A stretch of 32,000 nt of DNA from Candidatus Iainarchaeum sp. (GTDB lineage Archaea; Iainarchaeota; Iainarchaeia; Iainarchaeales; JAZDEL01): contig JAZDEL010000008.1 of assembly GCA_043808785.1 (NCBI GenBank), forward strand, positions 30,001 to 62,000, in the 5' to 3' direction. Shown piece by piece: positions 17,625 to 32,000 of this stretch. Numbering within the stretch: the first letter of the stretch is position 1; every line of letters starts with the position of its first letter. The translations under genes and the position numbers were made by a program. The notes under the pieces were generated by a model, which did no database searches, was not told the origin of the DNA, and was given only the letters and a program-made list of their open reading frames with translations.

Positions 17625-18629
17625 CTACTTCTTCACAGCAACGAGTTTGCACATTTCAACAAGCCTCTGCGAGTAGCCCATCTCGTTGTCGTACCATGCG
17701 AGGACTTTCACGAGTTTCCCGCCCGAGACGCGGGTCATTGTTGAATCAAAGATGCACGAATGCTTGTTCCCTATGATGTCCGTGCTAACGAGCGGCTCCT
17801 CGGAATACTGCAGGATGCCGTTAAGTTCCTTTTCAGAGGCGCGCCTCATTGCGAAATTTACCTGTGAAGCCGTGGCTTCCTCCTTGAGAAGAACGGTTAA
17901 GTCGGTGATGCTGCCGTCAGCAACGGGAACGCGGAGCGCGAGGCCGTCGAGTTTCCCTTTCATGGCGGGGAGGACGTTGCCTATCGCGCTTGCGGCGCCG
18001 GTTGTTGTCGGCACAATGTTGATTGCGGCGCTCCTCGCGCGGCGCAGGTCGCGGTGCGGACCGTCAACCAAATTCTGGTCCGCGGTGTATGCGTGAACCG
18101 TGGTCATAAGGCCGCACTCGATGCCGAATGATTTCTCAAGAACCATTACAACTGGGGCGAGGGAATTTGTAGTGCATGAGGCGAGGTCGATTATTGTTTC
18201 ACCGTTGTATGAGCCGCAGTTGACGCCGCGGACGAATTCGTTAACGCCCGTGCCTTTTGCAGGGGCGGTGATTATCACTTTCTTGGCGCCGGCAACAAGG
18301 TGCTTGCCAGCGCCCTCTTTGCTGCAGAAAACGCCCGTGCTTTCTATAACTACCTCGATTTTCATTTTTCCCCAGGGGAGCTTTTCTGGTTCCTTCTCGC
18401 TGAGGACGGAAATTTTCTTTCCCGAAACAATAAGCGAACTGCCCTCGTGCTTTACCTCAGCGGAAAATTTGCCGTGCACGGAATCGTGCTTAAGGAGGTG
18501 CGCGAGCGTTGCGCTGTCGGTGAGGTCGTTCACTGCAATTATTTCAATTCCCTTCTCGCCAAAGGCGCACCTGAAAAAATTCCTGCCAATCCTGCCGAAG
18601 CCGTTAATTGCAACGCGAACCATGTGCAA
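17625..18629 (-). CDS. gap: Glyceraldehyde-3-phosphate dehydrogenase, type I (bacterial/eukaryotic-like)
   Basis: VRVAINGFGRIGRNFFRCA..., the catalytic SCTTNSLAPV and ...WYDNEMGYS... are present. SD-like gggaggt lies upstream. Confidence 0.92.
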   Translation of the reverse strand: MHMVRVAINGFGRIGRNFFRCAFGEKGIEIIAVNDLTDSATLAHLLKHDSVHGKFSAEVKHEGSSLIVSGKKISVLSEKEPEKLPWGKMKIEVVIESTGVFCSKEGAGKHLVAGAKKVIITAPAKGTGVNEFVRGVNCGSYNGETIIDLASCTTNSLAPVVMVLEKSFGIECGLMTTVHAYTADQNLVDGPHRDLRRARSAAINIVPTTTGAASAIGNVLPAMKGKLDGLALRVPVADGSITDLTVLLKEEATASQVNFAMRRASEKELNGILQYSEEPLVSTDIIGNKHSCIFDSTMTRVSGGKLVKVLAWYDNEMGYSQRLVEMCKLVAVKK

Positions 18630-19131: not shown

Positions 19132-20115
19132 TCACACGAACTGCTCGTAGTTCGTTGAATTAAACCTGTATAAAAATCTTCTTATGCGCTGCCCGTTGAA
19201 AGTGTATTTCTGCAGCACCTCTTTCTTTTCCCCCGAAAATTCGGAAAATGCGTGGCTGCGCGAGGGGTCGAGGAGAGTGAACTTTCCCGCGCGTTCGTTA
19301 GCTGCTTGCCCGGCTCCCGCATGCCCTGTTCCTGCGTGCACGGTTCCGGCGCGCTCGGTTATGACAAACGCGTGAGTTGTGAGGTTCTCGAGCTCCGCAA
19401 TCACGACCTCGGCGCTGGAGTCGCCGAGTGCGGAAAGCAGGGAGCAGAGGAAAATCGCAAGGTCCTCGTCATCGGCAATTTTGCCGCGCATTATTTCCTT
19501 GGGCGTGAGCCAGAAATTGATTTCCAAATCGCTTTCGACGTAATTGATGTCGCGCTGGAGGAAATCGAGGATGCGCGCAGCGGCCTGCGGATAGTGCTTT
19601 TCGAAGGAATAATCCGCGTGCCTGTATTCCTGCAGAAGGCTCTGGATTGTCAAATCTTTCTCATCCACAAGCGATTTCAACTCGCCGACGGTTTTTTTCT
19701 CGAATTCGTTTATCAGGTCGGAGTAGCGCGTGAGAAGGGTGCGGTAAAGCCTGGACCTCAAGTCCTGCACCTGCTCGTGCTGCTTCTCGTTTCCTGAAAC
19801 GGAAATTGTCGCGCAGCCTTTGAGGGCGTTGCACTCCTTGAGCGCGCCCATGAGTTTCGCTTTTGTTACCGCAAGTTCCTTTTTCAGGCGCGTGTTCTCG
19901 CGCTCAAGGTCTATGTAAGCGGGCCCCTGCAGGGAAGCAAGGTTGTTCTTGAGGTTTGAAATCTGCTCGGATAATTGCTCCCTGCGCGCATCATCATGCT
20001 CGTCCCTAAGTTCGGATTCGAGTTCCTGTATGCTGCGCCATATTGCCTGCTCCGCCGATGTCTTGCGGAGTTTCTCTATAGGGAGGCTGGATTCGGCATT
20101 TTGCTGTGAATGCAT
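19132..20115 (-). CDS. Coiled-coil protein with a C-terminal transglutaminase-like (Cys-His-Asp) core candidate (327 aa)
   Basis: The N-terminal ~120 aa is heptad-rich. The C-terminal DLAIFLCSLLSALGDSSAEVVIA...TTHAFVITE...GKFTLLDPS places Cys (19444-46), His (19372-74) and Asp (19267-69) in TGase-core order. The ORF-track extension to 20592 crosses the intergenic region and the pilin gene, so I reject it. Confidence 0.55.
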   Translation of the reverse strand: MHSQQNAESSLPIEKLRKTSAEQAIWRSIQELESELRDEHDDARREQLSEQISNLKNNLASLQGPAYIDLERENTRLKKELAVTKAKLMGALKECNALKGCATISVSGNEKQHEQVQDLRSRLYRTLLTRYSDLINEFEKKTVGELKSLVDEKDLTIQSLLQEYRHADYSFEKHYPQAAARILDFLQRDINYVESDLEINFWLTPKEIMRGKIADDEDLAIFLCSLLSALGDSSAEVVIAELENLTTHAFVITERAGTVHAGTGHAGAGQAANERAGKFTLLDPSRSHAFSEFSGEKKEVLQKYTFNGQRIRRFLYRFNSTNYEQFV

Positions 20116-20223
20116 ACGAATATATTTATCTGGGCGGAAAGCCTCAAAAAAGGCACGGTTTTGGTTAGGCACGCAGGAATAAGCGAAAAAGCGCCTGGCT
20201 TCGGCAGGGTTCGGGAAACGGTT

Positions 20224-20324
20224 GCGAAAAAACAAAAAACGCGCGGGTTTTGCGCGGGCACGGGAAAACCGGGCATGGTTTGCCGGACGCGGGGCAAAAA
20301 ACAAAAAACCGCCCGCGGTTTGCG
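20224..20324. repeat. Two direct repeats sharing the 14-mer aaaaaacaaaaaac followed by a GC-rich c/gcgcggttt-type segment (20227-20254 and 20296-20324)
   Basis: Read directly. They lie in the divergent spacer between the TGase-like gene and the first pilin gene. Confidence 0.8.
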
Positions 20325-20344
20325 ATTTACGCGCGCGGGAAAAC

Positions 20345-20371
20345 GAAAGGTAGGGTTTTATATTAATAAAA
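20345..20371 (+). promoter_or_regulatory. BRE/TATA-like box gaaaggtagggttttatattaataaaa for the pilin genes
   Basis: The TATA core at 20357-20366 ends about 21 nt before the ATG at 20387, which implies a leaderless transcript. Confidence 0.5.
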
Positions 20372-20386
20372 ATTACATATAGTGCC

Positions 20387-20824
20387 ATGGTTTCAGTTTT
20401 TGGAAAGGGGAATGGGCGAAAAGGGCAGGTGGCGATAGAGTACATACTCATGAGCGCGTTCCTTCTGCTGGTCGTGGGCGTGCTGTTCGTGCACTCATAT
20501 ACGCAGTATGACAGGACAATGAAGATCGAGATGACGCAGCATGCCGTGGATTCGCTTGGCGAGGCTGCGGACCAGGCGTATGCGCTCGGCACAGGAAGCG
20601 TGCTTTTTGTCGATATGGACCTGCCTTACGGAATCGAGGGCTACACGGTTACGCAGAAGAACATCACATTAAAGTTGAACCTAATAGGGGTGCAGGACAC
20701 GGTATTTACGAGGACTGTTGCCGACCTGAATATGTTTTCCGCAATTCCAACATCCCCGACAAGGCACAGGATGAGGGTCAGCATGGGGGCGACCAACATA
20801 ACGCTGCAGGAGGTCTTCGACTGA
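20387..20824 (+). CDS. Archaeal type IV pilin-like protein with class III signal peptide (145 aa)
   Basis: The N-terminus is MVSVFGKGNGRKG|QVAIEYILMSAFLLLVVGVLFV: a basic residue-Gly, then Q, Glu at +5, then a hydrophobic helix. Confidence 0.8.
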   Translation: MVSVFGKGNGRKGQVAIEYILMSAFLLLVVGVLFVHSYTQYDRTMKIEMTQHAVDSLGEAADQAYALGTGSVLFVDMDLPYGIEGYTVTQKNITLKLNLIGVQDTVFTRTVADLNMFSAIPTSPTRHRMRVSMGATNITLQEVFD

Positions 20825-20864
20825 ACTGCAGCCAGCCAAATCGCTTCGGGGGGGTGTTGCCGGC

Positions 20865-21224
20865 ATGCGTAGAGGACAGGCTTCCATCGAGATCCTGATG
20901 GCTGTGGGGCTTATAATCATAATATTCATCTTTGTGAGCTGGTTTGTCTCAACAAGGGCGGCGGATACGGAATTCGTACACACGCAGTACGAGAACCAGC
21001 GCGTGTGCGAAAGGCTGGCATCCATAATTTCTTCCGTTTACGCGGCAAAGTCCGGGACTGAGATAAAGACCACTATAGAGAGCAATGCCCAAATAGTGAA
21101 CAACAGCATACACATAGGGCAGTATGCCTGCGACTTCGTCGGCAAGGCAAACCCTGCAACCCTGGCTGCGGGGCCGATAAGTGCGCGCAATCAGGGCGGA
21201 ATCGTGATTTTGCAAAACCCGTGA
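20865..21224 (+). CDS. Archaeal type IV pilin-like protein with class III signal peptide (119 aa)
   Basis: The N-terminus is MRRG|QASIEILMAVGLIIIIFIFVSWFV. Confidence 0.8.
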   Translation: MRRGQASIEILMAVGLIIIIFIFVSWFVSTRAADTEFVHTQYENQRVCERLASIISSVYAAKSGTEIKTTIESNAQIVNNSIHIGQYACDFVGKANPATLAAGPISARNQGGIVILQNP

Positions 21225-21260
21225 TCCTGCAAAACATATGATGTTAGCCGAAAACGAGCC

Positions 21261-21276
21261 ATATATTAAATAAAAA
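21261..21276 (+). promoter_or_regulatory. TATA-like box atatattaaataaaaa upstream of the third pilin / VWA operon
   Basis: The centre lies about 23 nt before the ATG at 21291. Confidence 0.4.
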
Positions 21277-21290
21277 ATGCAGAAGGCGTT

Positions 21291-21824
21291 ATGATGGATG
21301 TTGCTTTTCCAGGGAAATCCCCTGCGTGCGGAGTAAGGGGGCAGATTGCGGCAATAGACTTCCTGTTCGGGCTTTTCATATTCCTGCTCATAGTTGCGTG
21401 GCTGCTCAGCGTGTGGACAAACAACATGGAGGTCGCGATAGGCGAGCAGAATTTCGATGAGATGAGGATGAAGGGCTTCCAGATCATGGACGTGCTTGTA
21501 AGGACGCCAGGCACGCCCGAGAACTGGGAGGGCACGGGCATCACAAACATAAGCACGATAGGGCTGGCATACAAGGACAGGGTTGTGGATGCCAACAAGC
21601 TCGCGAAGTTCATATGGCTCGGCGATATCGCGCACGAATATGCAAAAACAAAGGAGATATTCGGGATTGTGCCTTACGATTACGAATTCACGCTTGACGG
21701 CATCGAGGACTTCAACACCGGCAAGCCCATAGAGGGCGCACCCATAGTTATCTCGATGGAGAGAACAGTGCTGTATCTGGGGAGCGATGCAAATGCGAAG
21801 ATTGCCATTTACTGGGAAGAGTAG
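21291..21824 (+). CDS. Pilin-like protein (177 aa) with class III-type N-terminus
   Basis: The N-terminus is MMDVAFPGKSPACGVRG|QIAAIDFLFGLFIFLLIVAWLL. Confidence 0.65.
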   Translation: MMDVAFPGKSPACGVRGQIAAIDFLFGLFIFLLIVAWLLSVWTNNMEVAIGEQNFDEMRMKGFQIMDVLVRTPGTPENWEGTGITNISTIGLAYKDRVVDANKLAKFIWLGDIAHEYAKTKEIFGIVPYDYEFTLDGIEDFNTGKPIEGAPIVISMERTVLYLGSDANAKIAIYWEE

Positions 21825-24087
21825 GGCTGCCTGCACGCGGCGTGCGGGCAGGGGCGTGGCAATATCCGTCGATGCCCTGCTTGCGGTAATATTGATAGCC
21901 ACGCTCGCCACTTTCGGGAAGTTCGCGCTCTACCAGGAGGCTGCGCCCAATAACCTTGTAAAGATGCAGACAATGCAGCGCACGGACGACGTGTTCACTA
22001 CAATGGTAAACTCGGGTTACATGATGGATGTCATGGACGACAACGGCTTCAACTCGGCTTCCGTGCAGGCGATTTACGCAAAGATGAACGCCATGACGCC
22101 GAGCAGCCTCGGGCTCAGGATTGCGATGAGGAAGTACGACATAAATTTCATGCAGTGCAGGGAATCCAAGACATTCGAGGCGTGCTTCCCCGATGAAAGC
22201 ATGAGCGAGATAATTGAGGGTGGCACTGTGCCGCCAGATACCGAGGTGCTGCACGGCAGGAAGGTGTTTGTAAAGCAGGAAAAGCCCGGGGAGTGCGGAG
22301 GCGATTATAACGGGGGGTATGCGCAGGGCGGAATCGCGGATGCGCTTTGGAACGGCATCCTGATGTTCGCTGCCTACGGAAACGCGGACATTAACTTCAG
22401 CATAGATGTCAGCCCCGAGAGTGAGCTCAATTGCGATGAAGAGGCGGATGTGTCGCTTGGAATAAGCGTGGGCATCGGCGGCAGGGACCCTGTCGATGTT
22501 GCGCTTGTTATGGACCGCTCGGGGAGCATGGATGATTACACTATGTTTGACAGGAACGTGCTTACGGGGCAGTTTGACGACGGCAACAAAACCTGCAACT
22601 GCGCAAGCTGGATGTGCAGCCTGTGCGGCAACAGCTGGTGCTCGTGGTGCTATACTTACGGGAACTGGCAGACGCTCGGCACTTTCACAATAGACAGCAA
22701 CCAGGACACGAATGTGACGATGAGGTATGCGGGATACAGCGGGGGCAGCAAGCCGAAGCTGAGGATTGTGAGCCCCGGTGGAACTACTTACGGCGGGACC
22801 GCGGCTTCTGTAGCGGCCAGTTATCCTGTACAGCTAGGCACCTGGACCGCGCAGGGATGGAGCGACGACTGGATAGATTACAATGTGAGCGTATATTACA
22901 GGAAGATCGATGTCTCAAAGGACGGGGCGCAGTATTTTGTGGGGCTTGCGGACTGGGAGGAACAGGACCAGCTTGCGCTGGTTTCCTACAACCAGAGCGC
23001 AACGCTGAACCAGGCGCTGACTACGGACAAGAACAAGGTGTGGGTTGCGATAAACGGGCTGAGCGCCGGCGGCAATACCGCGACAGGGGACGCGATTTAC
23101 AAGGCGACGGACGAACTCATGGGCGGCACGAACCAGAATTCGGATGCGATGAAATTCCAGGTCTTGCTGAGCGACGGGCAGACGAATACCGGCAGTTCAT
23201 CCTCGGCTGCGGCGCAGGACGCAAAAAACAAGGGCATAATAATTTACACAATAGGCCTTGGCGAGGATGTCGATGCGAACGAACTGCAGGCGATTGCGGA
23301 CATAACCGGCGGGCAGTACTATTATGCAAACGACCAGAACGCGCTTCAGGAACTGTATGAAATTATTGCGGGGAATATAGGGGACGACGCTTCGGGGGGA
23401 TATGCAATGACCAATGTCATTGTTAAGATTCCCGTGCCCCCGGGCACAACCATAACCGACACGGGGAACGGCGAATTCCAGGAGGGGGATGAAAACTTCC
23501 TCGTGTTCAATGTCGGGGACATGGAGTACAGTTCGGAGTGGCAGGGGAATTATTCCCTTGTTTATCCCTGCTCGGAAGAGCCGAGCTGCTCGGCTTCCGA
23601 AAAGGTTTTTCCAGAAGAGGGGGCGTACGTGAGTTACATAGACGTGAACGGTATCCCGCAGAATATCGACTGGGATGTCAATGTTACCCTGGATTTCCTC
23701 TACCGCGACCTTGCAATAGAGATAATCGGCGGCGAAATCACGGGCGAGAACGAGGTTTACCTCGATGTGAATGCGAAGAACCCGGGTTACCTTGACACAG
23801 TGGCCACGGACATAAAGTTCTACCTCAACGGCACCGGAGGGGACGGGGGCGAGTACATTACAAGCAGGAATGTTTCGGCAATGTGCGGCGGGTTAAGTGA
23901 AGGGTGCGATAACAGCAGCGAAGAGTTCTACGATATTTTCATAAACAAGGAGGGTTATATTTATGCGGTGATAAATGAGGATTCGGAGAACGAGGAATGC
24001 CCGAACAGGAATGTGGATTCGATAAATTGCTACGAGGGCGCTAAGACGCAGTATTTCACCCTCGATTACTGGGTGTGGCTTAAATGA
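21787..24087 (+). CDS. Large pilin-anchored surface protein: class III-type N-terminus + VWA domain with intact MIDAS + CARDB-like C-terminal domain (766 aa)
   Basis: The N-terminus is ...RRAGRG|VAISVDALLAVILIATL. The MIDAS is DVALVMDRSGSMDD (D243 at 22513), with ...GGNTATGDAI..., ...VLLSDGQTN... and ...IIIYTIGLGEDVD...ITGGQYYYA. The C-terminal GENEVYLDVNAKNPGYLDTVATDIKFYLNG is CARDB-like. There are many N-x-S/T sequons. It overlaps the upstream gene by 38 nt. Confidence 0.85.
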   Translation: MQMRRLPFTGKSRAACTRRAGRGVAISVDALLAVILIATLATFGKFALYQEAAPNNLVKMQTMQRTDDVFTTMVNSGYMMDVMDDNGFNSASVQAIYAKMNAMTPSSLGLRIAMRKYDINFMQCRESKTFEACFPDESMSEIIEGGTVPPDTEVLHGRKVFVKQEKPGECGGDYNGGYAQGGIADALWNGILMFAAYGNADINFSIDVSPESELNCDEEADVSLGISVGIGGRDPVDVALVMDRSGSMDDYTMFDRNVLTGQFDDGNKTCNCASWMCSLCGNSWCSWCYTYGNWQTLGTFTIDSNQDTNVTMRYAGYSGGSKPKLRIVSPGGTTYGGTAASVAASYPVQLGTWTAQGWSDDWIDYNVSVYYRKIDVSKDGAQYFVGLADWEEQDQLALVSYNQSATLNQALTTDKNKVWVAINGLSAGGNTATGDAIYKATDELMGGTNQNSDAMKFQVLLSDGQTNTGSSSSAAAQDAKNKGIIIYTIGLGEDVDANELQAIADITGGQYYYANDQNALQELYEIIAGNIGDDASGGYAMTNVIVKIPVPPGTTITDTGNGEFQEGDENFLVFNVGDMEYSSEWQGNYSLVYPCSEEPSCSASEKVFPEEGAYVSYIDVNGIPQNIDWDVNVTLDFLYRDLAIEIIGGEITGENEVYLDVNAKNPGYLDTVATDIKFYLNGTGGDGGEYITSRNVSAMCGGLSEGCDNSSEEFYDIFINKEGYIYAVINEDSENEECPNRNVDSINCYEGAKTQYFTLDYWVWLK

Positions 24088-26282
24088 ACAAAACGAAAAA
24101 TCAGGCATGCCGCAGGGGCTACACGCTGTCCCTCGATGCAATGCTTGCTCTGCTCCTCGTGATTGCATTCATAGGTTTCAGCAGGGTTGTGCCTTTCGAG
24201 GCCGGCACCACAAGCAACCTGCCGAAGATGCAATCCGTGCAGAGGGCGGACGATGTTTTCACTACGATGATAAACAGCGGATATATGTGGCAGAAAATAG
24301 ACGAGGTCGGGCTGAATAACGAGGCGGCGGAAAACATATACGCCAAGATGAGGGGCATGCTGCCTGACAGTGTCGATTTCAGGATTGTGATAAGGAAGTA
24401 CCAGGTGAATTTCGACCAGTGCAGGCTTGGCAAGACATTTGAGGCGTGCTTCCCGAGCGATGGCTTGTCGGAAAGGATTGCGGGCAAGGTGCCGCCCGTA
24501 AGGAGCGAGGTTGTGCACGGCAGGGGCGTATTTGTGAAGAAGGAGCCTGTCGGGATGTGCACTGTGGAGGGCGGGCTTGCGCCAAAGGAAGGCGGGGTTT
24601 CGGAGAAAAAATCCACTGCATGGCTTGAAGGGGAAATGATGGGGCTTGAGATGACAACAAGCGTAGACCCTCCAGCCCCGCCGTGCCCCCCGAATTCGCT
24701 TTTGTGCGACGGCACTGCTACAACACACCTTGGTCTAAATGCGATAGCCGGGGAGGGAAGGGCGCCGGGGCATGTGCTGTTTGGGATTGACATGGGCAAC
24801 CCTATGGGCAAGAGGTACGTGACCCAGAGCGGCTTCAACCTTGTCGGCCCCTGCAGCAAGCTAGGGACAACCATGGGGACGTTCCAGAACACAACAGATT
24901 ACTCTTTCACGCTTAAATTAAGCGACTGCTTGGGGGCCAAAATTACAGCCATCAGCCCTACTCTCGCGGAATACGGGCCGGGTGACTATGTCGATGTTTA
25001 CCGCCCGACAGCGCTTGGCACCTGGACTGTTCAATGCAGCAATAAAGATGCATTGTCGTGCAATGTCATTATGACGCGCACAAATTTAGAGGCGGGGCAG
25101 ATGTTTCTTGAAGGCGTAGTGGCTACAACCGATTGGAAACTCGAGGGCGCTGAAGGCCCCGACGAGGATGCGTTCACGACATTTCAGGACACCACATCAA
25201 CGCTTCTCGTGCCGTTAACAACTGACGAGGATTCGGTACTGCCTGCAATAGACGGCCTGCTAATCTCCCAGCTTGGCAGCAATGCGGATGTTGCTGCAGC
25301 GGTAATTGCGGCAACCGATATACTAAAAACAACCCCTGAAGGGGAGGTAAGGATATTTATTCCTGTCACAAACATCCACACAGGGGGGAGCATAGCCGAT
25401 GCCGCGAACTATGCCAAGGCAAACGGCGTGGTGGTTTACCCTGTTGGTGCCGGGTATAATTCGGATATGGTTGCACTAAACGAATTAGCATTAATTACAG
25501 GGGGAGAGGCGTGGCTTCTGACCGAAACTGACGCACTAATAGATTATTATACACTCATGGCCCAGAAACTGAAGGAGAGCATGATAAACGGCAACCGCAT
25601 AGACAATGCGCAGCTCAGGATTCCTGTTCCCGCGGGGCAGCTGGTTACCGAACACCTTGGCGGGGAGATAATACCGGAGGGCGAGGAAGAGTTCCTTGTT
25701 TACGACCTTGGAACGCTTGATGTCGGCGAGGGGTGGAGCACGGATTATTCCGTAGTGTTCCAGTGCAATGACGACCACGCATGCCAGAGCGGGAACACGC
25801 GGACTTTCCCGCAGCCTGTAACGGAAATAACCTACATGGATATAGATGGCTTGTTCGGCTCTGTGCCCTGGGACCCGCTTGTGGAGGTGCCTTTCAAATA
25901 CCGCGACCAGGAGGTTAAAATAATGGGCGGCAGGATTGTGGGGGAGAACCAGGTTTACCTTGATGTGAATGTTGCGAATGTCGGGCATCTTGATACGGTG
26001 GATACGTCGCTCAGGTTTTACAAGGACAGCACAGGCGATGACGGCACGTACCTTACCGCAAGGGGCGTAAGCGCGATGTGCGGCGGGCTCGAGGCGGGGT
26101 GCGGGGACAATGAGGCGTTGTATTACGATGTTCCGCTGGCAGCGGAGGGCTATCTTTACGCGATTGTGAACAAGCTCGGGGAAAATTCCGAGTGCCCCAC
26201 AAACAGCCAGGATGTCATACTGTGCCAGCTAGGGGCGAAGACAGAGTATTACACTATCGATTATTATGTGTGGCCGAAATGA
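24084..26282 (+). CDS. Paralog of the preceding protein with a degenerate VWA/MIDAS (732 aa)
   Basis: The N-terminus is MNKTKNQACRRG|YTLSLDAMLALLLVIAFIGF. Shared blocks are QRADDVFTTMINSGYM, KTFEACFP, LGTWTVQ, VYLDVNVANVGHLDTV and VSAMCGGL, plus the C-terminal ...GAKTEYYTIDYYVWPK. The MIDAS position reads HVLFGIDMGNPMG, so the DxSxS is lost. The ATGA start/stop overlaps the upstream gene. Confidence 0.8.
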   Translation: MNKTKNQACRRGYTLSLDAMLALLLVIAFIGFSRVVPFEAGTTSNLPKMQSVQRADDVFTTMINSGYMWQKIDEVGLNNEAAENIYAKMRGMLPDSVDFRIVIRKYQVNFDQCRLGKTFEACFPSDGLSERIAGKVPPVRSEVVHGRGVFVKKEPVGMCTVEGGLAPKEGGVSEKKSTAWLEGEMMGLEMTTSVDPPAPPCPPNSLLCDGTATTHLGLNAIAGEGRAPGHVLFGIDMGNPMGKRYVTQSGFNLVGPCSKLGTTMGTFQNTTDYSFTLKLSDCLGAKITAISPTLAEYGPGDYVDVYRPTALGTWTVQCSNKDALSCNVIMTRTNLEAGQMFLEGVVATTDWKLEGAEGPDEDAFTTFQDTTSTLLVPLTTDEDSVLPAIDGLLISQLGSNADVAAAVIAATDILKTTPEGEVRIFIPVTNIHTGGSIADAANYAKANGVVVYPVGAGYNSDMVALNELALITGGEAWLLTETDALIDYYTLMAQKLKESMINGNRIDNAQLRIPVPAGQLVTEHLGGEIIPEGEEEFLVYDLGTLDVGEGWSTDYSVVFQCNDDHACQSGNTRTFPQPVTEITYMDIDGLFGSVPWDPLVEVPFKYRDQEVKIMGGRIVGENQVYLDVNVANVGHLDTVDTSLRFYKDSTGDDGTYLTARGVSAMCGGLEAGCGDNEALYYDVPLAAEGYLYAIVNKLGENSECPTNSQDVILCQLGAKTEYYTIDYYVWPK

Positions 26283-26306
26283 GCCATTTGAAGGGGGAAT
26301 AAGTGA

Positions 26307-27335
26307 ATGAAAAATTGCCTTGTGCGGAAAGGGATGGGCGAGAGGGGCGTGCTTTTCACATTCATGGTTTTCATGATTGTGATGATAGTGCTCGGCCTCG
26401 GCACGACTATAAAGGGCGGCAGGCTGAAGTTCGAGTCGGATGTCACCAAAACCTCGGCACTGGAGGGCACGAGCAACAAATTCGGCAACATAATGAACGA
26501 TGTCGTAAATTTCGACAAAAACAACCTTGCGAGGAACATACAGAAGAGAATTATGCCGTTCGATTATGAGTATGACGGAAACGCCATCCGGGTAGGGCAG
26601 GAACTGCCGATGAAGGTCGGGATGCTCGACCTTTCGTTCGACATACTGAACGCGTACGATATCTTCATTTCGGACACGAACTCGCAGACTACATACGACC
26701 TGATGCATGTCGACGTGAATGCGGCAAAAAACAAATATTGGGGCGGCGACAGGAACAGCATACAATTCATGATAAAGCCGCAGTGCCTGAAGTTTGTTGT
26801 TGTCGACGAGAACGTTACGGGCTTCTTCGGCGGGATTGCGGACGAGGGCTGCGCATCGGGCTTCTCAGTCCAGAGCCTAAGGAGGTATGACCTCAATATC
26901 CTGATAAAACAGGCCAACCAGGCATATAACAATATTGTGTGCAATTTTGCAGGGTCCCCCCCCGAGGAATGCCCCACGGAAATTTTCAGTTCTGGCGACA
27001 ATGACCCTTACTTCGAGATGTTTGTTGACGACAGTTTGTGCACAAACTGCCAGCTCGGGGGGCAGACAAAGCACATATACGGGCATTACGACCCGGCATC
27101 CAACAATACTGTGGGTGTTTCGTGCGCAGGGGGGCCGGAAATATGCGGCGTCACGATAAACCCCATACTTGTGACTGTCAACAGCGGCATGAAGGCGGAG
27201 AACAAGGGCGGCGCTTTGGACGTAAACATGAGGGCGGAACTCGGGGGAAATATAATGCGGTTTTATTTCATGGACTTTAATTTTGCGGTAAGCCGCCCGG
27301 ATTTCAACACCATGATGACGAATGTCGGGCAGTGA
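26307..27335 (+). CDS. Cys-rich secreted/anchored pilin-like protein (342 aa)
   Basis: The N-terminus is MKNCLVRKGMGERG|VLFTFMVFMIVMIVLGLG. The mature part has multiple Cys (CASG, CNFAG, ECP, CTNC, SCAGGPEIC). Confidence 0.55.
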   Translation: MKNCLVRKGMGERGVLFTFMVFMIVMIVLGLGTTIKGGRLKFESDVTKTSALEGTSNKFGNIMNDVVNFDKNNLARNIQKRIMPFDYEYDGNAIRVGQELPMKVGMLDLSFDILNAYDIFISDTNSQTTYDLMHVDVNAAKNKYWGGDRNSIQFMIKPQCLKFVVVDENVTGFFGGIADEGCASGFSVQSLRRYDLNILIKQANQAYNNIVCNFAGSPPEECPTEIFSSGDNDPYFEMFVDDSLCTNCQLGGQTKHIYGHYDPASNNTVGVSCAGGPEICGVTINPILVTVNSGMKAENKGGALDVNMRAELGGNIMRFYFMDFNFAVSRPDFNTMMTNVGQ

Positions 27336-27468
27336 TGCCGGGCAAATTGCGGGAAAAAATAAGCGGGCGCGGGAAACGCGGAAATAAGAACCAATAAAAA
27401 GCGGAACGGGTATATTTTATTGAAAACAAAATCTTGGCATCGGATGGAAAAAGGAACGGGTCGGAAAT

Positions 27469-29226
27469 ATGGCTGAAGGCACTGGAAAGGAAGGCATCGG
27501 CGAGGCGATACTGAATTTCTTCAGGTCGCTCAGGAGGACGAAGATTCGCGGGAAAAAACAGCAGGATGCCGAGGCGCCGGGGGGCGAACTTGCCGAAGAA
27601 ATTGCACCCGAAGAAAAAAAGGCGGGGAGGGGGAAGGCTGCGCCTGGAAAGGCTGCGGGGGGCTGGGAAGAGCGGGGGGAAACCGCCGAAAAAACAGCCG
27701 GCAGCGGAGAGGCAAAAGCGCGGGAAGGCGAAACCGCGGGAATGGGGCCTGAAGAAAAGAAAATGCTCGAGAAGGAACTCAGTGAGTGGAGGTCAAAAGT
27801 AGATGCGCTTACAAAAAAGGTGGAGAACCTTGAGGAAAGGCTCAAGTCAAACACAATATCCCCCAACCAGGCGGTAAGCGGGATTCAGGTTGTTTACGGG
27901 GAAGTGGACAGGGAGGAGAACTCGATAAACAGGGAGATGCGCGCAACAAAGGCGGTGATGAAGGGCACTGTTTTCGATTATTACAAGAGGCGCATGACGC
28001 TGGACGAGTTCAGGAAGAGGATGCTCGAGTACAGGGGCAGGCTGCGCGTGCTGCAGGTCGAGAAAGCGGAATTGAAGAAGGAGGGCTCGAAGATAAGGGA
28101 AATGGGCGGGACTGTAAAGCAGTTCGCGCTGCAGATGCCTGCAAACGCAACAGTTGTGCCGGGCGGGAGTGCGGAGATGGACGCGGTATTCGGAAAAGGC
28201 GGCGGGGGCGGGAAAGGTAAAATTATAGGCGTGATTGGGGGCGGGGGCGGTGAGCAATCAGGAGGCGGGGCGGCGCCCGGGGGGAGCGGCAATTCCGCAG
28301 GCGGCGGGATAGGCGGCGCTGTTGAGGGCGTTGTTTCCGGAGTTGTGGGGGCAGGGTATGCAGCAGCATCCGCACTTAAGGGCGGGAAAAAAAGCGATGC
28401 GGGTTCGCGCGCGGCGCTGGCTGGTGCGGAACGCGCCGAGAGGGAGGCAAGGGCTTCCGCTGGAAAAGCCGTGGCGGGAAAAGGTGCAAAGGGGCCGAAA
28501 GGCGCAAGGGCATTTGCGGTAAACGTCTCGGGCAGGGATGAAGGGGGGGCGGGAAAGGCTGCCAAGCCGGCGCTCCCGAGGATGCCGAATGGGAAGGGGG
28601 AGCGGGAAGGTGCGGATGCAGGAGGGGGGGAAGAAGTGGATAAGGATGCCCTTGAGGAAAGGTGGGGGGGCGCGGCAGGGGTGAAGGAAATACTTGAGGC
28701 AAAGGCGGGGGGAAAAATCGACAGCGAAAGGCTTGCGGAACTGGAGAAAAAAATAAACGCCCTGCTCAAGGCGCACAAAATTTCCGAAAGCGACCTCGGG
28801 GAAAAGGCCGGGGAGATGGACACCTCGAAAGTCATAGAGAGTTTCAACAAGCTTATAGATTTGGTGGAACTTGAGAAGAGGGCAAAAAGGGCGGGCGTGC
28901 TGCAGGAGCCGACAAACACCCTGGAGGTTTCCGCTGTCGGGCTGGGCTCGCCAAAAAAGGTGGAGGCACTTAAGGGGATTGCGATAGACCTGAAGAAGCA
29001 CCGCATAGTGACGGATTTCGACCGCGTGCTCTCGCTCATAAAGGAAAAAAAGAAGATGGGGCTTATTGAGGTCGCGGCAACGCTCGGCATAGACAAGAAA
29101 TGGGCGGAGGAGTGCTGCGAAATACTCGAACAGAGCGGGCTTGTGGAAATAGTATACCCGCCTTTCGGAAAGGCGGGGGTAAGGCTTTCGGGATATGTTG
29201 AGGAGAAGAAGCCCAAGAAAAAATGA
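27469..29226 (+). CDS. Coiled-coil / Gly-Ala-Lys-rich low-complexity protein with a wHTH-like C-terminal domain (585 aa)
   Basis: The coiled coil is EKELSEWRSKVDALTKKVENLEERLK and the low-complexity part is GKGGGGGKGKIIGVIGGGGGEQSGGGAAPGGSG... The C-terminal FDRVLSLIKEKKKMGLIEVAATLGIDKKWAEECCEILEQSGLVEIVYPPFG looks like a winged helix. It is directly upstream of the ATPase. Confidence 0.6.
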   Translation: MAEGTGKEGIGEAILNFFRSLRRTKIRGKKQQDAEAPGGELAEEIAPEEKKAGRGKAAPGKAAGGWEERGETAEKTAGSGEAKAREGETAGMGPEEKKMLEKELSEWRSKVDALTKKVENLEERLKSNTISPNQAVSGIQVVYGEVDREENSINREMRATKAVMKGTVFDYYKRRMTLDEFRKRMLEYRGRLRVLQVEKAELKKEGSKIREMGGTVKQFALQMPANATVVPGGSAEMDAVFGKGGGGGKGKIIGVIGGGGGEQSGGGAAPGGSGNSAGGGIGGAVEGVVSGVVGAGYAAASALKGGKKSDAGSRAALAGAERAEREARASAGKAVAGKGAKGPKGARAFAVNVSGRDEGGAGKAAKPALPRMPNGKGEREGADAGGGEEVDKDALEERWGGAAGVKEILEAKAGGKIDSERLAELEKKINALLKAHKISESDLGEKAGEMDTSKVIESFNKLIDLVELEKRAKRAGVLQEPTNTLEVSAVGLGSPKKVEALKGIAIDLKKHRIVTDFDRVLSLIKEKKKMGLIEVAATLGIDKKWAEECCEILEQSGLVEIVYPPFGKAGVRLSGYVEEKKPKKK

Positions 29227-29250
29227 AATTTTCACGGGAAGGTGAGGTGC

Positions 29251-30762
29251 ATGGCGGATAAGCAGATAAAGGAATATGAACTCGAATCCGAGGGAATGAA
29301 GGTAAACATACGGATTGTGGAGATGGAGGGCGAATTCGTAAAGAGCTATTTTGTGGACATACCCGAATTCGGCCCCGGCACGGAGGCGCTGCTGCAGAAC
29401 CTGAAGGGCTACCTTGTTACGGACACTAGCATAAAAACGGAGAAGATGTTCGACGCGAAATTCATAGATTCGCTGAGGAAGATATTCAGGGAGCGCGCGG
29501 AAATAATACTCTCCAAGGAGCTGCCGCATGCGGACCAGAGGACGAAGGACCTGCTCATAAGCATGCTGCTGCACGAGATGCTCGGGCTCGGCAAGTTAGA
29601 GTTCATGCTTGCCGACGGGAACCTCGAGGAAGTGGTCGTGAACACGGCAGCGGAGCCTGCGTGGGTCTACCACAAGGAGTTCGGGTGGCTCAAGACGAAC
29701 ATAACGTTCGCGAACGAGGGGCAAACGCAGAACTTCGCAAGCATAATAGCAAGGCGTGTGGGGAAGCAGATAACCGTGCTGAACCCGCTGCTTGACGCGC
29801 ACCTCATAACAGGGGACAGGGCGAATGCGACGCTTTTCCCGATTTCGGGGAAGGGGAACACGATAACGATAAGGCGATTTAGGCGCGACCCGTGGACTGC
29901 CGTGGATTTCATAGCGAACAAAACTGCAACAATTGAACTTATGGCACTTGTGTGGTCCGCAATACAGTATGAAATGAACCTTATAGTGAGCGGCGGCACG
30001 GCTTCGGGAAAGACCTCGTTCCTGAACGTTTGTATGCCGTTCATACAGCCGAACCACAGGATTGTGAGCATAGAGGACACGCGCGAAATTTCATTGCCGA
30101 GCTTCCTGCACTGGGTGCCAATGACCACAAGGGAGCCTAACCCTGAAGGGCACGGCGGGGTGAGCATGCTTGATTTGCTTGTGAACTCGCTCAGGATGAG
30201 GCCTGACAGGATAATTGTGGGTGAAATAAGGAGGCAGAAGGAGGCGGAGGTGCTTTTCGAGGCGATGCACACCGGGCACAGCACTTACACAACAGTACAC
30301 GCAAACACAGCGGACGAAACAATAAGGAGGATGGCGAACCCGCCAATAGCGATACACCCCACGATGCTTGAGGCAGTGCACCTCAATGTGGTCATGTTCA
30401 GGAACCGCAGGCTGGGGATAAGGCGCATACTGGAACTTGCGGAGTTTATACCTGAAAAGAGGTCCGAGACCGAGGAAAATATAAAGCCGAACGTGCTTTA
30501 CAGGTGGAAGCCTGCAAAGGACGTAATAGAGAAGCACGCGGACAGCATAAGGTTCTTCGACGAAATGAGCCTGCACACGGGAATGACACGCAGCGAGATA
30601 GACAAGGACCTCAAGAGCAAGCAGGGCGTGCTTGAATGGATGATAAATCAGAAGATCCGCTCCATTGAGGACGTCGGGGCGGTAATGGCAAATTATTATT
30701 CAAACGAGGACGAAATACTCGGCTTCGTCAAACAGAAAAAGAAACCGCCGTTTGTGAGATGA
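29251..30762 (+). CDS. Type IV filament secretion ATPase (FlaI/ArlI / TadA-CpaF / VirB11 superfamily)
   Basis: Walker A is VSGGTASGKTSFLN, Walker B/Asp box is RPDRIIVGEIRRQKEAEVLFEAMHTGH and the His box is STYTTVHAN. The ATG at 29251 lies behind SD ggtgaggtg; the ORF-track start at 29242 is GTG. Confidence 0.92.
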   Translation: MADKQIKEYELESEGMKVNIRIVEMEGEFVKSYFVDIPEFGPGTEALLQNLKGYLVTDTSIKTEKMFDAKFIDSLRKIFRERAEIILSKELPHADQRTKDLLISMLLHEMLGLGKLEFMLADGNLEEVVVNTAAEPAWVYHKEFGWLKTNITFANEGQTQNFASIIARRVGKQITVLNPLLDAHLITGDRANATLFPISGKGNTITIRRFRRDPWTAVDFIANKTATIELMALVWSAIQYEMNLIVSGGTASGKTSFLNVCMPFIQPNHRIVSIEDTREISLPSFLHWVPMTTREPNPEGHGGVSMLDLLVNSLRMRPDRIIVGEIRRQKEAEVLFEAMHTGHSTYTTVHANTADETIRRMANPPIAIHPTMLEAVHLNVVMFRNRRLGIRRILELAEFIPEKRSETEENIKPNVLYRWKPAKDVIEKHADSIRFFDEMSLHTGMTRSEIDKDLKSKQGVLEWMINQKIRSIEDVGAVMANYYSNEDEILGFVKQKKKPPFVR

Positions 30763-31652
30763 TGAAGCAGGCATCGATACCGTTCAGCCCTTTGCCGGCA
30801 AAAATGCTGCTGCAGCTTTGCGGGCGCTTTAAGGGAATGGGGGCTAGGATAACAAACGCTTTCCCCTACATGAAAGTGGAGCTGAAGCAGGCGGAACTCG
30901 GGGTTGACGAGGCTGAATACGGCGCCGCAATGGTCTTCCTGTTCGGGTTCTATTTTGTGGCGGCAACCATAGTGGTTTATGCTATGGGGCTGCAGTTCTT
31001 CCCTGAAAACGCGATTATTGCGGCGCCGACACTCGGCGGAATATTCGCATTCCTTGTGCTGATACAGCTAAGCATGTTCCCGAAAATAAAGGTAAAGAAG
31101 AAGGTAAGGGACATAGAGCGCAACCTTATTTTTGCGCTTAGGACCCTGCTCATCGAAATAAAATCCGGCGTCACGCTTTTCAACGCGATAAACGTGGTTG
31201 CGGAAGGGCGCTACGGTGCGGTAAGCAGGGAATTCAGCAAGGCCGTTGAGAAGATAAATACCGGCACGAGCGAGGAGGCCGCGCTTGAGGAAATCGCCGC
31301 CCAAAATCCCTCGCTTTTCTTCAGGAGGGCGATGTGGCAGCTGCTTAACGGCCTTAAAACCGGCGGGGACATAAGCAATGCGGTTGCCGCAATGGTGGAT
31401 ACGCTTGCAAAGGAGCAGGCAAATCAGGTGAGGAAATACGGCTCGTCGCTGAGGCTGCTCTCGCTTGTTTACATGATGCTTGGCGTGATAATACCTGCAT
31501 TGGGGCTGACTTTCCTCATAATACTCGGGTCGTTCCCGCAGATAGCGATAACGGAGATGATGTTCTGGGCACTGCTTGCGGCAATAATCCTCGGGCAGTT
31601 TATGTATCTCGGCATGCTTAAATCCGGAAGGCCGAACCTCATGGGTGAGTGA
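30759..31652 (+). CDS. T2SSF-domain platform membrane protein (TadB/TadC/FlaJ-like half, 297 aa)
   Basis: LIFALRTLLIEIKSGVTLFNAINVVAEGRYG... is a T2SSF motif and several TM helices are present. The ATGA overlaps the ATPase stop. Confidence 0.85.
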   Translation: MMKQASIPFSPLPAKMLLQLCGRFKGMGARITNAFPYMKVELKQAELGVDEAEYGAAMVFLFGFYFVAATIVVYAMGLQFFPENAIIAAPTLGGIFAFLVLIQLSMFPKIKVKKKVRDIERNLIFALRTLLIEIKSGVTLFNAINVVAEGRYGAVSREFSKAVEKINTGTSEEAALEEIAAQNPSLFFRRAMWQLLNGLKTGGDISNAVAAMVDTLAKEQANQVRKYGSSLRLLSLVYMMLGVIIPALGLTFLIILGSFPQIAITEMMFWALLAAIILGQFMYLGMLKSGRPNLMGE

Positions 31653-31653
31653 T

Positions 31654-32000
31654 ATGTACAAGAAAATAGCGGCATTCATCCCTTCGGGCATAATCAAGGC
31701 GTTCAGGAGGGAAATGGACTACCTCAATATAGACCTGAGCGAGAAGACCGTGGTTGGGTTCATTGTTGTTTATGGCGCTGCACTGAGCCTCGGGATTGCG
31801 CTGTGCGCGTTTGCCTTCATAGGGGTAGATATTGCCGCGACTTTCCTGGCCTCATTTGTGCTGTTCTGCGTGGGCACATACCTCTGGCTAAGCATTGCCG
31901 CCGAATCGAAGGGAAAGCTTGTGGATTCAATACTCCCCGACGCGCTGCAGCTCATTGCCGCAAACATAAAGGCGGGGCTGACAACCGAAAGGGCACTGCT
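31654..32000 (+). CDS. Second T2SSF-domain platform membrane protein, 5' partial (runs off the window)
   Basis: The ATG at 31654 is 2 nt after the previous stop. MYKKIAAFIPSGIIKAFRREMDYLNIDLSEKTVVGFIVVYGAALSLGIALCAF...SILPDALQLIAANIKAGLTTERAL shows the T2SSF motif. It is absent from the ORF track because no stop is reached. Confidence 0.75.
   Translation, partial: MYKKIAAFIPSGIIKAFRREMDYLNIDLSEKTVVGFIVVYGAALSLGIALCAFAFIGVDIAATFLASFVLFCVGTYLWLSIAAESKGKLVDSILPDALQLIAANIKAGLTTERAL

Follow-up and report, generated by a model that had tools for sequence, protein, structure and literature searches.

The locus described here raises the question of what kind of surface structure, if any, is built by ten genes that lie on the plus strand at positions 20387-32000 of a 32,000-nucleotide stretch of archaeal DNA (the window; Table 1). 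On balance, we consider it probable that they give an archaeon of the Iainarchaeota (DPANN) an adhesion pilus, a type IV filament not used for motility. The preliminary description had counted eleven genes, which was a miscount, as both the list of open reading frames and that reader's own enumeration come to ten. The gene overlaps it mentioned are real, with an ATGA at g4/g5 and at g8/g9 and a longer one of 38 nt at g3/g4, and g10 follows g9 after 1 nt. Its guess about the organism is also supported, in that identical proteins carry the name Candidatus Diapherotrites: g8 is 100% identical to NCBI protein P0001, annotated as belonging to a Candidatus Diapherotrites (Iainarchaeota, DPANN) MAG, the NCBI model starting three codons downstream of the g8 start.

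Table 1. Features of the pilus locus and its upstream flank, with positions in the window
Feature	Position	Strand	Size or remark
Neighbor gene, possibly associated	19132..20115	-	327 aa; divergent from g1
TATA-like A/T box	20357..20375	+	12-30 nt upstream of the g1 ATG; read from sequence
g1, small pilin	20387-20824	+	145 aa
g2, small pilin	20865-21224	+	119 aa
g3, small pilin	21291-21824	+	177 aa
g4, modular pilin	21787-24087	+	766 aa
g5, paralogue of g4	24084-26282	+	732 aa
g6, Cys-rich pilin-like protein	26307-27335	+	342 aa
g7, cytoplasmic coiled-coil/Gly-rich and winged-helix (wHTH) protein	27469-29226	+	585 aa
g8, FlaI/TadA/VirB11-family secretion ATPase	29242-30762	+	Pfam T2SSE
g9, first platform protein, TadB/TadC-like	30759-31652	+	297 aa; one T2SSF domain
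g10, second platform protein	31654-32000	+	Reading frame runs off the window end

The A/T box upstream of g1 may be the promoter of a leaderless pilin operon. On its other side, the divergent neighbor gene encodes a cytoplasmic protein that combines a coiled coil with a domain of transglutaminase-like (CEP76-peptidase-like) type; the Pfam match to CEPT76_peptidase, at 23.3 bits and E 7.8e-5, lies under the gathering score. It occupies the same divergent position beside g1 in 9 Iainarchaeota loci; any function in, or membership of, the pilus system can only be inferred.

The first six genes (g1 to g6) encode class III-type N-termini, (K/R)G followed by a hydrophobic stretch, which are conserved in orthologues, and all six motifs quoted in the preliminary description were found in the translations exactly as written. 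Each of these proteins has a single hydrophobic segment, which is N-terminal, and g7 and g8 have none. In g1, RKG↓QVAIEY (arrows mark the predicted cleavage site) precedes the hydrophobic helix, a class III signal with the G↓xxxxEY of DUF361/Flp-like proteins (Pfam Class_IIIsignal, 23.3 bits, with the gathering score at 23.7), and (K/R)(G/A)↓QxSxEY is kept in orthologues across DPANN loci. The g2 protein starts with MRRG↓QASIE and a hydrophobic helix, keeps G↓QxSxE in its orthologues, fits a FlaFind-like pattern, and has a weak DUF7287 match (E 0.03). The g3 protein starts with VRG↓QIAAID and a hydrophobic helix, and its G↓QxxxxD is kept in about 40 loci; no other pilin of the locus except g1 is conserved as widely. 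The term "complete-looking" applied earlier to this pilus locus goes too far: machinery and pilins are present, but a prepilin peptidase and an evident small major pilin are missing from the cluster. No prepilin peptidase (Peptidase_A24) was found in the window or in any of 80 related loci, which counts against the pilus reading, and processing of the predicted pilins is putative.

The lack of an obvious major pilin bears on the length of the structure. A short pseudopilus or membrane-proximal stalk, comparable to the Sulfolobus bindosome or to the pseudopilus of type II secretion, might display the von Willebrand-type (VWA) proteins at the surface or within the S-layer with no long pilus at all. 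None of the six pilin-like genes is a typical short major pilin, the g1 homologues elsewhere in DPANN are large (425-1206 aa) with Ig-like domains, and g8 is similar to the bindosome ATPase BasE (122 bits), all of which would suit such a stalk. However, the BasE score falls far short of the 1000 set as cut-off for that model and is also lower than those for FlaI/TadA, archaeal major pilins are often encoded away from their locus (PMC4858521), and this locus is without substrate-binding proteins, so we regard a short stalk as unlikely.

The two paralogues of about 750 aa with pilin-type N-termini, g4 and g5, share 36% identity along their entire length. In g4, the class III-type N-terminus GRG↓VAISVD leads into an alpha/beta domain and then a VWA domain (Pfam E 2e-19; 1e-5 in g5) that is interrupted by an inserted Cys-rich beta-sandwich and followed by two further beta-sandwiches, the last remotely CARDB-like. 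The earlier reading of VWA plus CARDB modules thus stands for VWA in Pfam, but CARDB was not found by Pfam on the full-length proteins and has remote support only. The architecture of g5 is the same, except that the metal-binding MIDAS residues, intact in g4 (D243-x-S-x-S), are lost (GIDMGNPM). The DxSxS motif is present in g4 and its orthologue and absent from g5 and its orthologue in the syntenic locus L001, so the split between a MIDAS-bearing g4 and a MIDAS-less g5 holds in both genomes having the pair. Many g4 relatives add LVIVD beta-propeller repeats. The AlphaFold model of g4 (pLDDT 80, with a VWA core) has among its top Foldseek matches the pilus adhesins SpaC (1e-13), Mfa5, PitA, and RrgA, and also the vWA minor pilin PilB of Streptococcus sanguinis (7b7p, E 1.6e-8), a modular type IV pilin. 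Together with the N-terminal motif (K/R)G↓FxF(S/T)x(D/E) and hydrophobic stretch, conserved across the g4 family (alignment A1), these matches bear out the description of g4 and g5 as giant adhesin-like pilins.

The Cys-rich g6 belongs to a family of 134 representative clusters, in which six Cys are nearly invariant and Pfam recognizes no domain. Its N-terminus, ERG↓VLFTF, lacks an acidic residue at +5/+6, and (K/R)G↓hhFT is conserved among its orthologues; the true start is likely M10, at 26334, since homologues align from their own residue 1 to query residue 10. The conserved Cys pairs of g4/g5 and of g6 would fit an extracellular location. These three proteins might instead be surface proteins held by an uncleaved signal anchor, co-expressed with the pilus and unpolymerized. 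In keeping with this, a Foldseek search with the globular portion of the N-terminal domain of g4 gives no significant match among solved pilins (best E 2.8), g5, with Y at +1, and g6, with F at +3, have cleavage-site neighbors outside the FlaFind-type pattern, and the NCBI model of g4 (P0121, 743 aa) starts at an internal GTG and drops the charged leader. Yet the whole g4 family keeps a basic residue plus G/A directly ahead of the hydrophobic helix, as well as an acidic residue at +6, despite leaders ranging from 4 to 37 aa, the g4 N-terminus modeled alone gives an uninterrupted helix of about 49 residues, the gene sits between pilin genes in a position fixed in more than 10 loci, and vWA modular pilins have a bacterial precedent (PMC8179133). 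A signal anchor is accordingly an improbable explanation for the three proteins.

Directly upstream of the ATPase gene, g7 had been described as a coiled-coil/low-complexity wHTH protein. Pfam finds no wHTH in g7 itself, but the family profile does, at about residues 505-575, at the C-terminus. This 64-aa module is encoded in the gene directly upstream of the ATPase gene in 74 of 76 loci, its profile matches LrpA (3.5e-8) and IclR (1e-5) in the PDB, and family members match the TrmB, MarR, and DeoR HTH families. A DNA-binding g7 would suit a system mainly for exchange of DNA or other macromolecules between cells (Ups-like or competence-like), as would the extra C2H2 zinc finger of the nanohaloarchaeal homologues, and there is published speculation that DPANN use type IV pili for exchange (PMC5498576). 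Nuclease, helicase, and DNA-translocase genes are nevertheless absent from the locus, g7 has neither a signal peptide nor a transmembrane segment, and the VWA modules indicate ligand adhesion, which makes an exchange system very unlikely.

The machinery itself consists, as the preliminary description had proposed, of a FlaI/TadA-type ATPase and two T2SSF platform genes. The g8 protein has a Walker A motif (GGTASGKTS), a Walker B motif (DRIIVGE), and a His box, and matches Pfam T2SSE (E 6e-34) and PilB3_C (16 bits); its best PDB match is the Archaeoglobus fulgidus GspE (2OAP, 222 bits), with 162 bits against CpaF structures. Platform protein g9 has a T2SSF domain (E 7.6e-17) and four or more hydrophobic segments. 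By itself, the g10 fragment gives no domain match, and it is identified through its L001 orthologue (64% identical, 335 aa, T2SSF 1.8e-17). Judged by its sequence, g8 is a FlaI/TadA-type ATPase and not an ArlI. An archaellum (motility) cluster, to which automatic JGI/NCBI homologue names such as "flagellar protein FlaI" and the FlaI equivalog as best NCBIfam match of g8 might point, is effectively refuted: the FlaI score is 256 bits against a cut-off of 550, the ArlJ model gives only 25 against 550, the platform is split in two genes, domain searches of the window found no archaellin, ArlF/G/H, or chemotaxis gene, in agreement with the preliminary description, no ArlCDE/X occurs in the window or L001, and no archaellin, ArlF/G/H, or KaiC-like gene lies here or downstream in L001.

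If the locus does build an adhesion pilus, a PibD/EppA-type peptidase encoded elsewhere would cleave after (K/R)G, and the ATPase and platform would pull the pilins from the membrane and polymerize them via their N-terminal helices. The shaft could be built by g1 or by a pilin encoded elsewhere in the genome, with g2, g3, and g6 as a priming or tip complex; the +5/+6 acidic residue missing from g6 is likewise missing from GspK-type tip subunits. At or near the tip, the MIDAS-competent g4 and MIDAS-less g5, perhaps paired, would make metal-dependent contact with a ligand carried by a surface or by another cell, their CARDB-like and other beta-sandwich domains serving as spacers. The g7 protein would most likely act on the ATPase, as its adaptor or regulator, or else control transcription of the locus. 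For filament formation, tip location, ligand, and g7 role alike, we infer from sequences and models, and episymbiosis and host attachment are speculation.

How far is this locus new? Its full gene order recurs in L001, at least ten Iainarchaeota loci keep most of it, and a core of g1/g3, the g7 C-terminus, g8, g9, and g10 is found in Woese-, Nano-, Aenigm-, Nanohalo-, and Altiarchaeota loci; the ATPases of the first four are 52-57% identical to g8 and have a wHTH partner. In the available text of Hamm et al. 2024 (PMC11291902), this core locus type is already published for DPANN: conserved type IV pilus loci that include coiled-coil proteins, some of them seen in proteomic data, share with ours a CpaF/FlaI-type ATPase, TadC-like platform genes, a coiled-coil protein beside the ATPase and, in one of their two loci, pilin genes. 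Those loci belong to cluster 2 DPANN and Undinarchaeota, whereas ours is from the Iainarchaeota, in cluster 1. Their coiled-coil proteins were read as resembling the viral attachment fiber sigma-1, whereas the conserved part here is a cytoplasmic wHTH module, and the VWA modular pilin pair and the g6 family go unmentioned in that text. What is new here is that Iainarchaeota have a pair of VWA pilins and that the wHTH module has been recognized.

Among characterized systems, the Epd pilus of Methanococcus maripaludis (Makarova clade 1; "System 1" of Sivabalasarma and Albers 2026, whose preprint includes DPANN among its hosts) likewise has two platform genes, many pilin genes, Gln +1 pilins with a QxSxE motif (Pfam PF04021/DUF361 type), adhesin-like proteins in the locus, and a role in adhesion. 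In contrast, our locus is without EppA, a headless major pilin of about 70 aa, and DUF2341 adhesins, and the g8 C-terminus resembles PilB3 of clade 2. The earlier label "Tad/Epd-like" suits the platform, which is split, and the pilins, which are of Q+1 QxSxE(Y) type, but the ATPase C-terminus recalls haloarchaeal PilB3. Euryarchaeal clade 2 systems, among them the PilB3-PilC3/PilA adhesion pili of Haloferax volcanii, share a C-terminus of this kind (PilB3_C scores in the ATPase family of 30.7 bits for P0075, 27.0 for P0052, and 16 for g8), the closest solved g8 relative is the A. fulgidus GspE, and haloarchaea have a protein with class III-like, DUF7289, and VWA parts (P0159); clade 2 also has nanoarchaeal members, and paired tadC genes are common in it (Makarova 2016). 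Our pilins, however, are of Q+1 type and encoded in cis, and the likeness rests on the ATPase and not on membership of the pilins in PilA (arCOG02416) or arCOG02911.

The bacterial Tad/Flp system (TadA/CpaF, TadB, TadC, Flp, TadE, TadF, TadG) resembles the locus in its split platform, CpaF-like ATPase, the G↓xxxxEY of g1, several pseudopilin-like proteins, and a VWA domain on a pilin-like protein, TadG, to which g4 is similar at the level of a generic VWA domain. It differs in that secretin, TadZ, and TadD are absent here, as in an archaeal envelope, and the ATPase is nearer to archaeal enzymes. In bacteria, vWA modular pilins are adhesins, and in S. sanguinis PilB a vWA module is grafted on a pilin (PMC8179133; its survey of modular pilins, built on the bacterial IPR012902 signature, does not mention archaea). 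Like PilB, g4 has a class III N-terminus followed by a VWA domain with a MIDAS, and the vWA-plus-propeller layout of Pseudomonas PilY1 is paralleled by the g4 relatives with LVIVD repeats. Unlike either, g4 and g5 are archaeal, have a VWA domain split by a beta-sandwich insert with CARDB-like domains after it, and come as a pair, one with a MIDAS and one without.

By ORF list, the pilus locus of this Candidatus Diapherotrites (Iainarchaeota, within DPANN/Nanobdellati) genome comprises ten co-directional genes, not the eleven counted in the preliminary description, whose own enumeration likewise sums to ten. NCBI has proteins 100% identical to g8 and g4 from a Candidatus Diapherotrites MAG, encoded on a contig of 63,283 bp. 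The tight packing reported there holds, with a 38-nt overlap of g3 and g4, ATGA overlaps at g4/g5 and g8/g9, and a gap of 1 nt between g9 and g10. The core machinery of a type IV filament is readily recognized: g8 matches T2SSE (6e-34) and the FlaI, TadA, and VirB11 families, with Walker A, Walker B, and His box motifs readable in its sequence, while g9 (7.6e-17) and the orthologue of g10 (1.8e-17) match T2SSF. Pfam also recovers VWA domains in g4 (E 2e-19) and g5 (E 1e-5), so that the T2SSE, T2SSF, and VWA assignments made earlier are upheld for g8, g9, g4, and g5. A single hydrophobic segment, at the N terminus, is present in each of g1 to g6, against at least four in g9; such segments are absent from g7 and g8.

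Features of the pilus locus and its surroundings, with window positions (nt); arrows in the leader motifs mark the predicted processing site, and the motifs are conserved in orthologues (g4/g5, in the family)
Feature	Position	Strand	Description	Leader motif
PIN	16042-16479		stand-alone PIN-domain gene	
GAPDH	17625-18629		class I (bacterial-type)	
Neighbour of g1	19132-20115	-	327 aa, transglutaminase-like	
Intergenic region	20116-20386		three repeat units	
Terminator-like units	20256-20240; 20321-20306	-	hairpin plus T-run	
g1	20387-20824	+	small pilin-like	(K/R)(G/A)↓Q-x-S/A-x-E-Y
g2	20865-21224	+	small pilin-like	G↓Q-x-S-x-E
g3	21291-21824	+	small pilin-like	G↓Q-x-x-x-x-D
g4	21787-24087	+	VWA pilin-like	(K/R)G↓F-x-F-S/T-x-D/E
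g4 charged leader	21787-21855	+	dropped in NCBI model	
g5	24084-26282	+	VWA pilin-like	(K/R)G↓F-x-F-S/T-x-D/E
g6	26307-27335	+	Cys-rich pilin-like; probable true start Met10 (26334)	(K/R)G↓h-h-F-T, without acidic residue
g6-g7 gap	27336-27468		133 nt	
g7	27469-29226	+	coiled-coil/wHTH protein	
g8	29242-30762	+	ATPase; start probably 29251	
g9	30759-31652	+	T2SSF platform	
g10	31654 onwards, beyond window end	+	T2SSF platform	

The profile scores agree with the earlier reading of the locus as a pilus rather than an archaellum. The archaellum ATPase ArlI is rejected as an identity for g8, whose 256 bits against the NCBIfam FlaI equivalog fall short of the cut-off of 550, and ArlJ is rejected for g9 (25 bits, cut-off 550), the platform being split into two single-domain genes. 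Neither Pfam nor NCBIfam gave a match to archaellin, ArlF/G/H, or a KaiC-like protein in the locus or its flanks. The nearest solved structure to g8 is A. fulgidus GspE (222 bits over nearly the full length), with FlaI at 168 and CpaF at 162 bits. As stated before, a prepilin peptidase is not visible (Peptidase_A24 was not found in the window), and a regular-expression screen (at least four TM segments plus GxGD) over 80 related loci returned only T2SSF proteins, although so crude a screen cannot prove absence.

All six N-terminal motifs quoted in the preliminary description were found, and their conservation was assessed from orthologue N-termini of related loci and from the g4 family alignment. 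A FlaFind-like regular expression matches g1 to g4 and neither g5 (Y at +1) nor g6 (F at +3), both of which satisfy only the looser rule of (K/R)G followed by hydrophobic residues. The g1 leader lies just below the gathering score of Pfam Class_IIIsignal (23.3 against 23.7 bits). The g1 and g2 motifs fit the "QXSXEXXXL" description of EppA-type substrates in PF04021, and that of g1 also fits the Flp motif G↓xxxxEY. The six proteins are predicted to be processed and polymerized as pilins; a small gene of the about-70-aa major pilin kind was not found in the ten-gene locus. Elsewhere in DPANN (loci L011, L013, L033, L035, and L075), g1-type QxSxEY pilins are 425-1206 aa long, with Ig-like domains of the MG2 or Big_13 families, which suggests that pilins of modular build are common across DPANN pilus loci.

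With each GTDB species represented by a single genome, 593 loci with relatives of the ATPase were found, and g1 to g10 were compared by tblastn with 80 of these; the source species is not among the GTDB representatives. The neighbourhood comparison proposed in the preliminary description recovered the full g1 to g10 order in L001, the closest relative (79% identity in the ATPase), where a 169-aa ORF, a cytidylyltransferase gene, and CoaE follow g10 and neither an archaellum gene nor a peptidase gene was found downstream. Most of the order (g1/g3, one g4-type gene, g6, the g7 C terminus, g8, g9, and g10) recurs in at least ten other Iainarchaeota loci. What the loci of Woese-, Nano-, Aenigm-, Nanohalo-, and Altiarchaeota share with the window is limited to small pilins, the C-terminal module of g7, the ATPase, and the pair of platform genes. 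The g4/g5 duplication was seen in the window and, among the 80 loci, in L001 alone.

The g4 family itself is small, with 45 matches in 5.8 billion clusters, the named top matches being mostly Diapherotrites or "archaeon". In the AlphaFold model of g4 (23 sequences, mean pLDDT 80), an N-terminal helix is followed by an alpha/beta domain (residues 54-171), a small beta-sandwich, and, from residue 236, a VWA domain with the metal site (MIDAS) motif D243-R-S-G-S; a Cys-rich beta-sandwich (residues 256-372) is inserted before the remainder of the VWA domain (residues 373-535), and two beta-sandwiches complete the C terminus. The MIDAS residues are retained in g4 and its L001 orthologue, T431 and D463 being near-invariant in the family. 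The VWA fold is kept in g5, but DxSxS and the other MIDAS residues are gone, as they are in the g5 orthologue of L001. Foldseek of the g4 model against the PDB returned VWA proteins, prominently the pilus tip adhesins SpaC (1e-13), Mfa5, PitA, and RrgA, and also archaeal ArnB and the Streptococcus sanguinis type IV modular minor pilin PilB (7b7p, 1.6e-8). A separate model of the first 212 residues (pLDDT 77) has a 49-residue helix and then helices and four strands; Foldseek with this isolated domain gave no pilin match and nothing below E 1 (best E 2.8), so that it is the leader and helix, rather than the head fold, that justify the term pilin module.

The CARDB modules proposed earlier have remote support: full-length g4 and g5 have no Pfam match to CARDB, but the last domain has remote profile similarity to it. 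The top three PDB matches of the last-domain family profile (E 0.002-0.01) are all true CARDB domains (Pfam 9e-24, 1e-13), and the last domain of g4 alone reaches 14.2 bits (E 0.05) on PF07705; the C-terminal domain profile could not be meaningfully aligned by hhalign with P0149, a relative that contains CARDB. The call is therefore remote, if reasonable. The NCBI gene model of g4 (P0121, 743 aa) begins at an internal GTG, the Val of VAISVD, and drops the charged leader. Although leader length in the g4 family ranges from 4 to 37 residues, a basic residue followed by G/A closes every leader; the NCBI model is therefore likely leader-truncated, and the comparison probably exposes a mis-annotated start codon that leaves the public VWA protein without its leader peptide.

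Many relatives of g4 (P0130-P0146) carry LVIVD beta-propeller repeats (PF08309) in place of the Cys-rich inserted sandwich, a combination of VWA and propeller reminiscent of PilY1. A haloarchaeal protein, P0159 from Halomontanus rarus, combines a class III-like N-terminus (RG↓NAQIIGLVLL) with DUF7289, DUF7305, and VWA. Pilin-like VWA proteins are therefore likely to occur beyond DPANN as well, under no other annotation than "vWA domain-containing protein".

The Cys-rich protein g6 belongs to a family of 134 representative clusters in an exhaustive phmmer search, mostly of about 320 aa, whose members have in common a KG-hhFT N-terminus and six near-invariant cysteines. Pfam found no shared domain in 41 members, and a PDB sequence search with g6 gave no match. 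The probable leader is MGERG. The Glu5 used by other pilins is missing from tip subunits such as GspK, and this analogy makes g6 a candidate for a tip or priming subunit.

In 74 of 76 loci, the gene that directly precedes the ATPase gene, and in many cases overlaps it, encodes a module of 64 residues (g7 residues ~505-575), whose family was gathered from related loci (a word-indexed search with the g7 C terminus gave three matches). Its profile matches the wHTH regulators LrpA (3.5e-8) and IclR (1e-5) in the PDB, and family members match the TrmB, MarR, and DeoR HTH families. The partner regions vary by lineage: (i) a coiled coil without a TM segment in Iainarchaeota, (ii) two to six TM helices in 27 loci, mostly of Woese- and Nanoarchaeota (L019, L020, L022, L027, L032, and others), (iii) CBS-like motifs in Aenigmarchaeota (L041, L049, and L055), and (iv) a C2H2 zinc finger in Nanohaloarchaeota (L039, L040, and L071). 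Such a pattern is consistent with an adaptor or regulator in the cytoplasm, and the module may be a previously unrecognized, DPANN-wide cytoplasmic component of the pilus motor. As such, the wHTH protein would tether or adapt the ATPase, the part taken elsewhere by GspL/PilM, TadZ, or ArlX/ArlH, and would not form an extracellular fibre. It corresponds to the coiled-coil proteins beside CpaF/TadC in cluster 2 DPANN that Hamm et al. 2024 (PMC11291902) likened to the viral fibre sigma-1. The lineage-varied fusions to TM helices, zinc finger, and CBS-like motifs argue for a cytoplasmic role of these proposed attachment fibres, and the wHTH finding suggests such a different role for those of Nanohaloarchaeota.

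Upstream of the locus lie 20 kb of housekeeping genes (AsnC regulator, AMMECR1, wyosine radical-SAM enzyme, NFACT, geranylgeranyl reductase, Dfp, PGK, a PIN protein, cupin-type PGI, and GAPDH). The class I GAPDH gene neighbours those for PGK and the cupin-type glucose-6-phosphate isomerase; the organism therefore retains a glycolytic core. Neither a tRNA nor an Rfam RNA was found anywhere in the window. The divergent neighbour of g1 codes for a protein with a coiled coil at its N terminus and a weakly matching transglutaminase-like domain (Pfam CEPT76_peptidase, 23.3 bits) with a Cys/His/Asp-like motif; it had no match in a PDB sequence search and keeps its divergent position beside g1 in nine Iainarchaeota loci. 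Transglutaminase-family peptidases have been linked to clade 1 pilus loci (Makarova 2016). In the intervening region, three copies of a unit made of an A-rich run and a GC hairpin read as terminator-like on the minus strand; they could bind a regulator, encode a small RNA, or be what remains of a repeat. The g1 ATG is preceded, at 12-30 nt, by a TATA-like A/T-rich box, and a second, GTATATTTTATTG, lies in the g6-g7 gap ~50 nt upstream of the g7 ATG, where it may act as an internal promoter; the two boxes suggest separate pilin and machinery operons. A sigma-70 promoter/terminator scan of the window, a model inapplicable to archaea, stayed at background level.

To our knowledge, little has been established on how DPANN archaea recognize and hold surfaces or host cells, and we know of no cultured representative of the Iainarchaeota, which are often considered more self-sufficient. 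The MIDAS-bearing and MIDAS-less VWA-CARDB pilins g4 and g5 may form a heterodimeric tip adhesin, with which Iainarchaeota would capture a partner cell; if true, this would point to an episymbiotic lifestyle. That such a partner-capturing pair and a DPANN-wide wHTH motor component are both real is, as a joint proposal, rather unlikely. The locus supplies candidates for laboratory expression, namely a predicted metal-dependent VWA adhesin on a pilin and its predicted MIDAS-less partner, and a pilin set suited to modelling of a tip complex.

Compared with known archaeal systems, the two-gene platform (g9, g10) and the Q+1 pilins (g1, g2, g3, and orthologues; the DUF361/PF04021 QxSxE type, typical of EppA substrates) resemble Epd/System 1 (Makarova clade 1), which is further marked by a clade 1 ATPase, a dedicated 9-TM EppA peptidase, and an about-70-aa headless major pilin (arCOG06620). 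Neither trait is exclusive to that type, two-gene platforms also occurring in clades 2, 4A, and 4B (PMC4858521; preprint 10.64898/2026.04.22.720090). The C terminus of the g8 family comes near threshold on Pfam PilB3_C (P0075, 30.7; P0052, 27.0; P0002, 20; g8, 16 bits), which hints at an affinity to euryarchaeal clade 2.

For DPANN in general, the presence of type IV pilus genes is on record (PMC5498576, PMC6393860, PMC8561730), conserved ATPase/TadC/coiled-coil loci have been described (PMC11291902), and large adhesin-like class III proteins are reported from archaeal TFF loci (2026 preprint 10.64898/2026.04.22.720090). The novelty left open in the preliminary description does not extend to the core locus, which is already published, but the Iainarchaeota-specific MIDAS+/MIDAS- VWA-CARDB modular pilin pair, the g6 family, and the recognition of the wHTH module are new; a full-text literature search joining DPANN pili with von Willebrand adhesins returned no match. 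The finding refines a known system and does not overturn current views. Modular pilins with vWA domains are established adhesins in bacteria, in a survey that does not mention archaea (PMC8179133), and the architecture of g4 suggests that archaea share the bacterial strategy of grafting a binding module onto a pilin.
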